A DNA stretch of 52,858 nucleotides from Rhodothermales bacterium (GCA_046756545.1 JBHHWM010000004.1:1-52858), one strand, 5' to 3'. Shown: positions 25,700-52,766, counted from the first letter of the stretch. Notes: generated by a model from the sequence alone, not told the origin. Numbers and translations are program-made.

Positions 25700-28573
<2,874 letters not shown>

Positions 28574-28800
28574 CGGGAAGGGAAGGACAGAGGGTGGGCG
28601 AAGGTGCTACGGTGGATCAGGCCTTATACGCACATGTGCAAAACATGATGCCGCAGAGGGGAGGAAAAATTACGATCTCGTCCGCATGGGTCCCTTCGAA
28701 TTGCTCTGAGGGTGCGGAACAGCCCGGTAGGGGCTCCGGTTGCAGGCAGTCCGGGGCCAGGCGGTTTCGGCGATCCTATCGTTTCCTGTGCAGATACTCC

Positions 28801-50342: not shown

Positions 50343-50996
50343 TCAGAACCGCCGCATCAATCCGATCACACATCCGATGATATAGCAGCCCGGATCGCTG
50401 GGAGAGAAGGTCTCCTCGGTATAATGGCGATTGGCCGGGCGCAGGTGGATGCGTCCGTTCGTCAGATCATAGCGCCGGATGAGCAACGTCTCTCGAACCA
50501 GCGCGGCGGCAATGGTCCCGTTCCGCACTTCTCGTAGGGAGAGTTGTTCGATGATCAGGAGGTCTCCCTTGCGGATGCCGTCCCCGTTCATCCCGTCGTC
50601 GCCGGCTCGGCCCAGGATGCATGATTTCGGGTCGCGCGCATTGCGGAGGAAGAAAGGGTCCACCGAAAAGATGGCCGACGGGTTATCACGGAGCAGTTCC
50701 GGCTGATCGCTCGCCGTGCGGCTGACGACGATGAGGCGGCCGGGGCCGTCGTCGGGGGCAAAGGGGTCCTGGTCGGCGTCGACGTTGAGCAGGCGAATGC
50801 CGCGTGCGGCGTGCCGCTCCCGTTCTATATAGCCTTTCTGTTCGAGCGTCTGTAGCAATTTGAACGTGCCGTTCGTTGAGCGGATACCCAGCGCATCGCC
50901 AATCTCCTTGAGGGTTGGCGGTTTGCGAAAGGTGTGCATGTAGGTGCGGATATAGTTCAGGGCGTCGTTCTGGCGCTGGGTAAGGCTCGGCTGCAT
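50343..50996 (-). CDS. lexA: LexA-family repressor with a degenerate (non-autocleavable) S24 domain
   Basis: N-terminal LTQRQ...PPTLKEI..LGI.S.N....L..LEQKGYI....ARGIRL; S24 fold recognisable, but AG->SD, Ser->Gly and Lys->Arg. Confidence 0.88.
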   Translation of the reverse strand: MQPSLTQRQNDALNYIRTYMHTFRKPPTLKEIGDALGIRSTNGTFKLLQTLEQKGYIERERHAARGIRLLNVDADQDPFAPDDGPGRLIVVSRTASDQPELLRDNPSAIFSVDPFFLRNARDPKSCILGRAGDDGMNGDGIRKGDLLIIEQLSLREVRNGTIAAALVRETLLIRRYDLTNGRIHLRPANRHYTEETFSPSDPGCYIIGCVIGLMRRF

Positions 50997-51048
50997 GGCA
51001 AGACGGAGAATATATGTGTGCACATCAAGCAGGAGGAATATAGGGATT

Positions 51049-51097
51049 GGTGAATAAATTTTCACCCGGCAAAATAATAGGTGAACAAATTTTCACT
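51049..51097. promoter_or_regulatory. Two tandem palindromes GGTGAA-N6-TTCAC(C/T)
   Basis: 51049-51066 GGTGAATAAATTTTCACC and 51080-51097 GGTGAACAAATTTTCACT, 31 bp apart. Confidence 0.6.
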
Positions 51098-51185
51098 TCA
51101 GGGGTGTTGTGAACAGGGGGTGTGGAAAAGTGCATATGTGTATATAAGAGAAGCACACAAAAAATCAACTTTCCGGCCAAAATGC

Positions 51186-51247
51186 TTGACTTTCGACCCA
51201 AATACAGTACCTTTGAAGCGGTGGGGAAATGTGGGGAGAAATCCCAT
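51186..51247 (+). promoter_or_regulatory. mraZ (dcw) promoter and MraZ-box-like GTGGG repeats
   Basis: TTGACT (51186) and TACCTTTG (51208, fits TAnnTTTG), followed by GTGGGGAAAT GTGGGGAGAA at 10-bp period. Confidence 0.65.
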
Positions 51248-51294: not shown

Positions 51295-51735
51295 ATGTCG
51301 TTCAAAGGGCAAGCAGAGTACTCCGTTGATTCGAAAGGCCGGGTTGCCATCCCGGCCAAGATGAGAAGTGCCCTGAATCCGGAAGCGAAAAGCACCTTCA
51401 CGATCACCCGCGGCTTCGAGAAATGCATCTTTTTGTATCCGCTCGACCGGTGGCAGAAAATGGAAGAGGAAATTGGTGCGCTGAGTTCCTATGACCGGGA
51501 AGCCCGGGCTTTCACCCGCCGCATCATGATGTGGGCCGACGAGGTGACGCTCGACGGTCAGGGGCGCATCGGGTTGCCGAAGTCGCTAGCCGATTTTGCC
51601 GACATCAAGGATCGGGCGCTGATGCTCGGAGCCTATGATCGCATTGAGATCTGGAATCCGGAGGCCTTCGAGCAATACCTGAACGAAGAAACAGCCGACT
51701 ATGAGACGCTCGCCGAGCGGGTGATGGGCGTGTAA
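51295..51735 (+). CDS. mraZ: Transcriptional regulator MraZ
   Basis: FKG...[31 protein letters not shown]. Confidence 0.96.
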
Positions 51736-52766
51736 TGGAGCCGGATGAATCAGAGCGTCAGCAGGAAGCTTTCGACCATACCGTGCAAGGGGCCGAGGAT
51801 CCGTTACAGTACGCCACGGCCTACCATGCACCTGTTCTTTGCCAAGCTGTTATCGAAAGACTCGTGACCGACCCTGCGGGCCTCTACGTAGATGCCACGC
51901 TCGGCGGGGGCGGGCACTCCGCTGCCTTGCTCGACGCACTGGACCCGGAAGGGCGCGTCGTCGGGATCGACCGGGATGCCGATGCCCTGGAAGCTGCCGG
52001 CGTACGCCTGAGCAACGAAATGAAACGCAGTCGCTTCCGGATGATTCAGGGCGACTTCGGTGACCTCCAGCGGCTGCTGGACAAGATCGGCGTGACACAG
52101 GTCGACGGACTTTTGCTGGACCTCGGCGTCTCCTCGCACCAGATCGACGAGCCGGGCCGGGGGTTCAGCTACGCGGCGGAGGGGCGTCTCGACATGCGCA
52201 TGGATGTGCGTGGCGGGTTCATGGCCGACGAGGTGGTAAACCGATGGAGCGAAGAAGCCGTGCGCGACGTGCTGCGGCACTACGGGGAAGAGACCCGGGC
52301 GCGCAAGATTGCCCGCGCTATCGTCGCGGCCCGGCCCATCGCCACAACGACCCGCCTGGCCGATGTCGTCCGAAGCATCGTGCCCACCCGTGAAGAAGTC
52401 AAAACGCTGGCGCGTGTTTTTCAGGCCATCCGCATCGCCGTCAATGATGAATTAGACCGGCTGGAGCAGGTGCTGCTGGTGGGGCGCACCCTCGTAAAGC
52501 CCGGCGGGCGGATGGCCGTTATTTCGTATCACTCGCTGGAAGACCGTCGCGTGAAGCGCTACTTCCGCTACGGAAATTTTCGAGGCGAGCCCGTGCGCGA
52601 CTTCTATGGCAATCTGCTCACGCCCTGGCGTGTCATCACGCGAAGGCCCGTCCAGGCCGATGTTGCCGAGGTCGCAGCCAATCCACGCGCCCGGAGCGCG
52701 CGGCTACGCGTCGCCGAACGCCTCGAAGATCCGTCTTCGGACGATGACCTGAATCAGCCTCTATAA
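51735..52766 (+). CDS. rsmH: 16S rRNA m4C1402 methyltransferase
   Basis: [55 protein letters not shown]. Confidence 0.97.

Follow-up and report, generated by a model that had tools for sequence, protein, structure and literature searches.

What does a LexA protein do once its cleavage site and both of its catalytic residues have been replaced, and why should its gene stand head-to-head with the genes that open the dcw cluster, which serves division and the cell wall? These questions are raised by a contig of 52,858 nucleotides from a Rhodothermales bacterium (GCA_046756545.1, JBHHWM010000004.1:1-52858), here called the window, which is contig C4 of an assembly of 5.4 Mb in 570 contigs that is 96% complete. 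The gene concerned lies on the minus strand at 50343-50996, stop codon included, and we coined the label lexL for it. The analysis in silico described below identifies its product as a catalytically dead LexA paralogue, and we consider it rather probable that LexL is a non-cleaving, autoregulated dimer dedicated to the local regulation of the dcw control region.

The reading frame of lexL is unbroken and encodes 217 amino acids, with an ATG start at 50996 that is backed by the N-termini of 18 orthologues. A winged-helix LexA DNA-binding domain occupies residues 4-66 (50799..50987, minus strand; Pfam LexA_DNA_bind, PF01726, E 5.1e-17; Foldseek match to 1lea, TMt 0.87), and S40, N42 and K46 of its recognition helix are invariant in the orthologue alignment. 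It is followed at residues 86-217 (50346..50741, minus strand) by a C-terminal domain of the S24 fold, in which Pfam Peptidase_S24 (PF00717) matches residues 107-211 (E 8.4e-13). LexL scores 110.2 bits against the NCBIfam lexA equivalog TIGR00498, below the cut-off of 110.95, a shortfall that decides little alone because the canonical LexA of the same genome is likewise under the cut-off (107.1 bits).

To map individual residues we used HMMER alignments to the solved E. coli LexA chains 1jhf, 1jhh and 7b5g. VSRTASDQP of LexL aligns with VGRVAAGEP of E. coli, placing S96-D97 (50706..50711, minus strand) at the former cleavage site A84-G85; RAGDDGM aligns with RVSGMSM, so that G135, within a GDDGM motif (50589..50603, minus strand), replaces the nucleophile Ser119; and ETLLIRR aligns with DEVTVKR, with Thr at E152 and R174 (50475..50477, minus strand) in place of the general base Lys156. 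The codons of the GDDGM motif and of the arginine were also read directly in the DNA. The original prediction, aligned by hand, had proposed exactly these exchanges together with an intact winged helix in an uninterrupted frame, and it was right in every detail. At the aligned positions LexL thus has neither an Ala-Gly or Cys-Gly scissile bond (Ser96-Asp97 instead) nor a Ser-Lys catalytic dyad (Gly135/Arg174 instead). Because nucleophile, general base and scissile bond are all absent, S24 self-cleavage cannot occur and, by inference from the established LexA mechanism, RecA-dependent inactivation is excluded; self-cleavage assays of LexL, whether stimulated by RecA filaments or by alkaline conditions, are predicted to be negative.

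Loss of catalysis has left the predicted fold in place. The AlphaFold2 model of LexL has a mean pLDDT of 88.3, and its top Foldseek matches are all LexA, with TMt values of 0.76-0.83 for LexA C-domains. When the C-domain was modelled as a homodimer, the pair scored 0.76 (best of three controls, 0.00) with contacts through residues 110-116 and 210-217; contact agreement among the runs was at least 100% and the pLDDT of the partner at least 91. Among proteins of solved structure, 20 of 30 one-chain pairs and one of 23 single chains came up to the mark applied to such models. As LexA dimers have already been solved, the pass of LexL may reflect structures known to the predictor and indicates likeness, not proof, and we refer to residues 86-217 as a predicted dimerisation domain.

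LexL is not the SOS repressor of this organism. A search for a second, catalytic LexA, which the original prediction had called for, found a canonical copy elsewhere in the genome, downstream of recO, with the motifs IAAGQ, VSGQSM and SLKR. The genome also encodes a UmuD with an intact site, whose gene adjoins that of a Y-family polymerase (a UmuD/UmuC pair). LexL is therefore a third, additional S24 protein, and is ~32% identical to the canonical LexA over the aligned part.

The loss of the catalytic residues is shared by the whole family. All 19 orthologues extracted from the same order (Rhodothermales by database names) lack Ala-Gly, carry an xD(D/A)GM motif whose Gly stands where Ser would be, and show Arg in place of Lys, and no close orthologue with Ser/Lys was found; D133, G135, M136 and R174 are invariant in the alignment and D134 is nearly so. 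A profile search of 1.84 billion representatives returned 190 proteins at E <= 1e-30, the best 150 of which were classified at the dyad positions: 56 were Gly/Arg, nine Ala/Arg, two Thr/Arg, five Ser/Arg, 64 canonical Ser/Lys and 14 other or gapped, and every full-length match among these 150 above ~155 bits was without the dyad. In a FastTree phylogeny of 186 rows (22 representatives outside 195-260 amino acids were left out), all 90 dead rows and two Ser/Arg rows were split off from the rest by a branch of support 99. A quick IQ-TREE run under a site-mixture model used 61 of these rows, drawn randomly within each category, and separated 30 dead and two Ser/Arg rows from 26 canonical and three Ser/Arg rows, with a support of 96 in the Shimodaira-Hasegawa-like approximate likelihood ratio test (SH-aLRT). 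Both trees are unrooted; a single origin of the dead-site state, in a clade separate from canonical LexA, is supported on both. LexL falls within this clade by tree placement, by Arg at the Lys156 position and by a motif of the xDDGM type that lacks Ser.

The trees also yielded two observations of their own. Inside the canonical group, the canonical LexA proteins of the Rhodothermales are reached by a very long stem, of 1.34 changes per column in the IQ-TREE phylogeny, so that the SOS repressor of the order is itself unusually divergent. The five representatives that keep Ser while Lys has become Arg lie partly inside the dead clade (P0173 and P0235) and partly outside it (P0168, P0203 and P0214); P0168 and P0214 also keep Ala-Gly, and the five may be intermediates in the loss of catalysis.

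The C-terminal domain is, as judged from substitution rates, under strong purifying selection. The ratio of nonsynonymous to synonymous rates (dN/dS) was 0.03 at a dS of 0.83 between the family members of loci L021 and L022, and below 0.3 in three other computable, partly saturated pairs; six pairs were tried, two of which were not computable (one near-identical, one saturated). Such constraint bears on the notion that LexL is a decaying, strain-specific duplicate of lexA, a pseudogene in progress. That notion might draw on the score just below the NCBIfam cut-off and on the faster evolution of LexL relative to the canonical copy, but it is refuted by the conservation data: the frame is intact, the same substitutions recur in 19/19 orthologues, the clade has a single origin, dN/dS lies at 0.03-0.3 and the fold is confidently predicted. 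We accord it next to no probability. Clade-wide loss of single origin combined with purifying selection instead upholds the idea of the original prediction that LexL is a repurposed regulator unable to cleave itself by the S24 mechanism.

A different possibility is that LexL is still switched off by proteolysis, be it by an external protease of the Lon/ClpXP type or by variant catalysis, and acts as a repressor cleaved upon damage or stress. The two Ser/Arg rows inside the dead clade, the two Thr/Arg representatives and the persisting conservation of the former cleavage loop and pocket could be accommodated in this way. Against it stand the Gly at the nucleophile position and the missing Ala-Gly of the window protein itself, as well as the Gly/Arg state common to 56/150 representatives; nor is a degradation tag evident in the sequence, though no test for tags was made. 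We regard this possibility as improbable.

If LexL is a retained regulator, its neighbourhood suggests what it might regulate. On the opposite strand, Pfam identifies mraZ (51295..51735, plus strand; MraZ, E 1.6e-30) and rsmH, also known as mraW (51735..52766, plus strand; Methyltransf_5, MraW methylase, E 7.6e-93), confirming the proposed head-to-head arrangement for these two genes; the window ends 92 bases past rsmH, too soon to include the proposed ftsL. The gene is divergent from mraZ-rsmH in 19/19 loci from relatives and in 35/35 named Rhodothermales loci, including those of Roseithermus, Salinibacter, Salinivenus and Rubrivirga. The two sets share some genomes, and the named loci were gathered with a seven-row alignment whose peptide patterns bias them towards close relatives. 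Only part of these loci have pyrG on the other flank. Full-length matches from outside the order came from a sample of 300 genomes of the phylum; 20 of these matches were fetched, of which seven had a dead site and 13 were canonical. Six of the seven dead-site members, which belong to other classes, are divergent from mraZ-rsmH, and none of the 13 canonical LexA genes (AAG, G.SM, K) adjoins mraZ. Conservation of the pairing across the order and beyond is thus supported by these samples. Mere co-occurrence of LexL and MraZ is uninformative, as MraZ is near-universal in the order (39/41 genomes).

The intergenic regions between the divergent genes have two copies of GGTGAA-N6-TTCACC in common. 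In the window these form the predicted operators O1 (51048..51067; core palindrome GTGAATAAATTTTCAC at 51050-51065; 28.2 bits) and O2 (51079..51098; core palindrome GTGAACAAATTTTCAC at 51081-51096; 28.9 bits), which are 31 nt apart. With a matrix derived solely from other genomes (29 sites, 15 genomes), O2 was the best match in the whole genome; the next match beyond the two operators reached 18.2 bits, and the reversed-genome control 20.2 bits. Only the two sites at its own locus thus exceed the control in the whole genome, and no DNA-damage regulon of LexL emerged with this matrix; a LexL-type box was not seen upstream of recA or uvrA either. A loose pattern (GGTGAW-N6-WTCACY) applied with one mismatch to five relatives was swamped by coding-sequence matches. 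Without mismatches, and among the matches listed, it was found in G013 only at the two locus sites, in G038 at the two locus sites and two other places, and in G021 at one locus site and two other places. As a separate observation, three tandem copies of GGTGAAAACCACAACAC, picked up with the loose operator pattern, follow each other at 33-nt intervals at G021:C1:647835-647918.

Allowing at most two core mismatches, 15 of the 19 orthologous intergenic regions have two boxes, those of L006 and L024 have one, and those of L021 and L022 have none beyond a stray match. These last two loci, which hold the most divergent Rhodothermales members, carry TGGTAC-N4-GTTCCA-like pairs instead, and members from one other class carry CTGAAC-N4/5-GTTCAG pairs; because the palindromes differ along with the proteins, the operator motif co-varies with LexL. 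The operator core TGAAC-N4-(G/T)TTCA resembles GAAC-N4-GTTC, the LexA box of Gram-positive bacteria.

Such a private operator pair is hard to reconcile with a further proposal of the original prediction, namely that LexL acts as a heterodimer partner of canonical LexA and thereby dampens or tunes the SOS response. It is true that both proteins are encoded in the genome and that S24-fold C-domains are, by fold match, dimerisation modules. Yet LexL has palindromic operators of its own that are distinct from the words at canonical lexA promoters and occur only at its own locus, and the low identity of the two proteins speaks against mixed dimers as well. Moreover, in 3/5 tested genomes of other classes, G150 and G129 (both 100% complete) and G042 (89%), nothing but the mraZ-linked dead protein matches the lexA model at E <= 1e-5. 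The proposal was therefore abandoned as very improbable.

The predicted lexL promoter (51037..51065, minus strand) was found by a consensus scan and consists of a -35 element GTGAAA (51060-51065), a 17-nt spacer and a -10 element TATATT (51037-51042). The -35 element is supplied by the core of O1, and an ATA-containing, -10-like block beside this operator is conserved in an alignment of 13 loci. The predicted mraZ promoter (51186..51215, plus strand) was read from the sequence as TTGACT (51186-51191), a 16-nt spacer and TACCTTTG (51208-51215); a sigma-70 consensus scan did not call it, and its TTGAC and TAC.TT columns are conserved in the 13 loci. Just downstream lie the MraZ boxes (51221..51246, plus strand), which comprise GTGGGG, 4 nt, GTGGGG and then an inverted CCCA, all in columns that are invariant in the 13-locus alignment. 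Their GTGG cores, 6 nt apart, match the published MraZ boxes of the GTG(G/T)-6 nt type, and in this respect the mraZ promoter resembles those known for MraZ autorepression. With twin phased palindromes lying between lexL and the divergent mraZ, the window displays the second hallmark of the clade.

The spacing of these elements was compared in those 29 of the 35 named loci where MraZ boxes accompany two operators. The distance from O1 to O2 is 22-23 nt in three loci, 31-33 in 18, 43 in three and 54-56 in five, classes that correspond to two to five helical turns. From the centre of O2 to the first MraZ box it is 122-124 nt in five loci, 135-139 in five, 145-148 in 17 and 158-160 in two. In contrast to these discrete classes, the distance from the lexL start to O1 takes scattered values between 52 and 226. 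In the window, O1 and O2 are 31 nt apart and O2 stands 132 from the MraZ box; in other classes the last operator precedes the MraZ box by 138-139 nt in three loci, by 170.5 in one and by 221 in one.

On this map LexL would work as follows. Having kept its winged helix and S24 fold, the pseudo-protease would not respond to RecA filaments by self-cleavage. A LexL homodimer most likely binds each of the two 16-bp palindromes, GTGAA-N6-TTCAC, which in the window lie three helical turns apart, and the dimers on O1 and O2 may cooperate on one face of the helix, as suggested by the palindromic operators, the predicted C-domain homodimer and the whole-turn spacing. Because O1 covers the -35 element of lexL, LexL would repress its own synthesis through this operator; negative autoregulation is the most direct inference, the operators overlapping the promoter of lexL itself. 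From the same sites LexL would act upstream of the MraZ-controlled promoter, probably in concert with other factors that occupy the DnaA boxes and the conserved words on either flank. As for the constrained C-terminal domain, its role would be dimerisation and perhaps also the sensing of a signal or partner. An effect of LexL on mraZ is a conjecture, drawn from the uniqueness of the sites, from cross-class synteny and from the discrete distances that separate O2 from the MraZ boxes, in contrast to the drifting lexL side. Site uniqueness in the genome, pairing with mraZ across the phylum and the discrete O2-MraZ box distance are likewise why we favour a dedicated local dcw regulator.

Several observations weigh against this interpretation. 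The operators overlap the lexL promoter only and lie ~100 bp upstream of the mraZ -35. The distance classes are uncorrected for shared ancestry, and their steps of ~9.5-14 nt amount only roughly to one helical turn. At the completeness and fragmentation of the assembly given above, a further operator site could be unassembled. The family is also dispensable: a full-length LexL match was obtained in about 24 of 40 same-order relatives, a 25th, more divergent copy lies next to mraZ in G004, and about 15/40 gave no full-length match with the LexL query, even though nearly all genomes of the order have MraZ; of 13 mraZ upstream regions examined from such relatives, only one holds a divergent family member. 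LexL evolves faster than canonical LexA, with a mean identity of 54% vs 70% (36 pairs from the same nine genomes), or of 53% vs 77% for the C-domain. Finally, the seventh dead-site member from outside the order, L101 2489-3112, lies inside a co-directional operon of unrelated genes, and in G035 the LexL match and mraZ are on different contigs. Two of these exceptions deserve a description. The genes next to the L101 member are radical-SAM-like and ATP-grasp-like. The divergent copy of G004 (L118 347-1078) is dead at the site (VPDNGM, TVRR), has diverged far in sequence and carries a long Gly/Pro-rich insertion in its linker; its gene is still divergent from mraZ, and its C-domain was missed by the single-protein search.

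Some of the same facts could mean that LexL is a pure autoregulated factor whose real output is not the dcw cluster, its C-domain acting for example on another protein, and that the pairing with mraZ is a frozen accident or a by-product of a compact region. O1 overlaps the lexL promoter only, no operator lies over the -35 or -10 of mraZ, many relatives that keep mraZ have lost the family or yielded no member, and L101 shows that a member can occur in another gene context. A regulator that targeted its own promoter alone, however, would have no output; adjacency to mraZ is kept in 35/35 loci of the order and in 6/7 of other classes, even as further neighbours, pyrG among them, vary; and O2 stands at discrete distances from the MraZ boxes, in contrast to the free variation on the lexL side. 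We therefore hold such an uncoupled autoregulator to be unlikely, if the most serious of the alternatives, and retain the dedicated dcw regulator as the preferred account. As for the control of cell-division genes that the original prediction had advanced, it is partly supported: synteny and the discrete MraZ-box distances speak for it, whereas the operators are placed over the promoter of lexL and ~100 bp away from the mraZ -35.

The two operators are flanked by conserved words that would provide sites for further factors. Word A (TATGTGTG; 51013..51020, plus strand) lies 44 nt left of the O1 centre and word B (TATGTGTA; 51135..51142, plus strand) 46 nt right of the O2 centre, both being defined by multi-locus alignment and counts. 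They are directional, reading YATGTG(Y) on the mraZ-sense strand, and recur at orthologous positions in L006-L022 and L043-L075. Among the 30 of 36 loci with two operators (the window plus L043-L077), 19 have a same-strand YATGTG to the left of the O1 centre at 42-46 nt; to the right of the O2 centre, one lies at 44-48 nt in 19 and at 34-36 nt in five more. Over the window as a whole, YATGTGYR shows no enrichment as an 8-mer (8 found vs 8.5 expected). Related words, for example TATACTGTG-N5-CATGTG, occur at canonical lexA promoters both in this genome and in 18 relatives. That the YATGTG words are themselves canonical SOS boxes was considered and rejected: with a matrix from seven lexA-promoter sites, nothing was recovered but the lexA promoter of the genome itself (25.5 bits; next match 20.0, control 19.5), and the lexL region gave no match. 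Words related to YATGTG were also noted upstream of umuD, and none of this type was present in the upstream regions of recA and uvrA.

Perfect DnaA boxes (TTATCCACA or its complement) occur in 10/19 orthologous intergenic regions, namely L006, L007, L010, L015, L018, L019, L021, L022, L023 and L024, compared with 0.07 in shuffled sequences. These 9-mers lie between the operators and the mraZ promoter, and the copy in the window, at 51121-51129, matches at 8 of 9 positions.

Taking all of these sites together, a more far-reaching scenario can be drawn, which we put forward tentatively and with clearly less confidence than the dedicated regulator itself. An ancient duplication of lexA in the Bacteroidota might have given rise to a pseudo-protease that was captured by the division control region; with MraZ, DnaA and a factor reading YATGTG it might build a nucleoprotein complex of fixed geometry upstream of mraZ, and this complex might set dcw transcription according to a signal sensed in the former active-site pocket, with its invariant Asp-Asp-Gly-Met and Arg. 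If so, the SOS switch would have given rise to a division checkpoint that is independent of RecA.

In light of known systems, LexL resembles canonical LexA (E. coli LexA; TIGR00498; MEROPS S24) in two-domain architecture, fold, palindromic operators, a predicted C-domain dimer and an operator over its own promoter, implying autoregulation. As opposed to canonical LexA, it lacks Ala-Gly, Ser and Lys and hence RecA-triggered self-cleavage, has no regulon beyond its own locus in silico, belongs to a separate clade and coexists with a canonical LexA. A natural non-cleaving, LexA-related regulator without Ala-Gly and the catalytic Ser has been described in Synechocystis sp. PCC 6803 (LexA, sll1626); it is described as missing two of the three elements and as controlling a large number of non-SOS genes of various processes (PMC1524924, PMC7567884). 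LexL likewise lost the cleavage site and nucleophile but, unlike the Synechocystis protein as portrayed there, it lost all three elements, is a paralogue beside a canonical LexA and is linked to mraZ, and its predicted sites are confined to one intergenic region rather than serving many genes. The non-canonical SOS repressors of Bacteroidetes (Sanchez-Osuna et al., 2021), members of the same phylum in the broad sense, also fuse an S24 C-domain to a DNA-binding domain (HTH_XRE + S24); this domain is a phage-type five-helix helix-turn-helix, Ala-Gly and the Ser-Lys dyad are kept and SOS genes are controlled (PMC8565304), so that they differ from LexL in DNA-binding domain and in the intact dyad. 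The text of PMC8565304 makes no mention of Rhodotherm*, Salinibacter or mraZ. The DnaA boxes in the orthologous intergenic regions recall the DnaA repression of B. subtilis yllB-ftsL, a precedent cited in the introduction of PMC2533591. In the open-access full texts searched we found no report of a dead LexA paralogue tied to mraZ, nor of a LexA-family protein in the mraZ/dcw control region.

Natural non-cleaving LexA is thus known; what is new here is that pseudo-protease paralogues of LexA form a clade which has a private pair of operators and appears to be wired into the dcw control region. LexA is the textbook repressor built on self-cleavage, and a whole clade has dropped that logic while its fold was kept under strong selection, which makes it a clean natural example of a pseudo-enzyme transcription factor. 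For the dcw cluster, whose regulation is poorly understood outside a few model organisms, the locus offers a concrete predicted map, on which two operators with a word on each flank are joined by DnaA boxes and, at discrete distances, by MraZ boxes. Annotation calls for caution as well: clade members are recorded in databases as 'repressor LexA' or 'S24 family peptidase' (the sources of one cluster call it 'repressor LexA [Candidatus Thermokryptus mobilis]'), and such labels can mislead the inference of SOS regulons in Rhodothermales, Kryptonia-type and related genomes.

A few minor observations concern SOS-related genes and other S24 proteins. The window holds a second uvrA-family gene (25748-28495, minus strand; 1116.7 bits to TIGR00630), the primary uvrA being on contig C309. 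About 135 nt upstream of it, at 28629-28640, lies the palindrome TGCACATGTGCG, a candidate SOS box of the lineage, which resembles the word CACATGTGC just past the -10 of the canonical lexA of this genome. In a metagenome-assembled genome (MAG) of the Syntrophaceae, a UmuD-like protein (L080 2315-2899), encoded upstream of a Y-family polymerase gene, keeps the Ser (ARDDSM) and has no general-base Lys (WLLRY). In a Calditrichota MAG (L078), canonical lexA (1673-2290) is followed at 2351-2782 by a gene for a stand-alone S24-like domain of 143 amino acids, which has a dead site (APDNRM, FIRR) and no DNA-binding domain.

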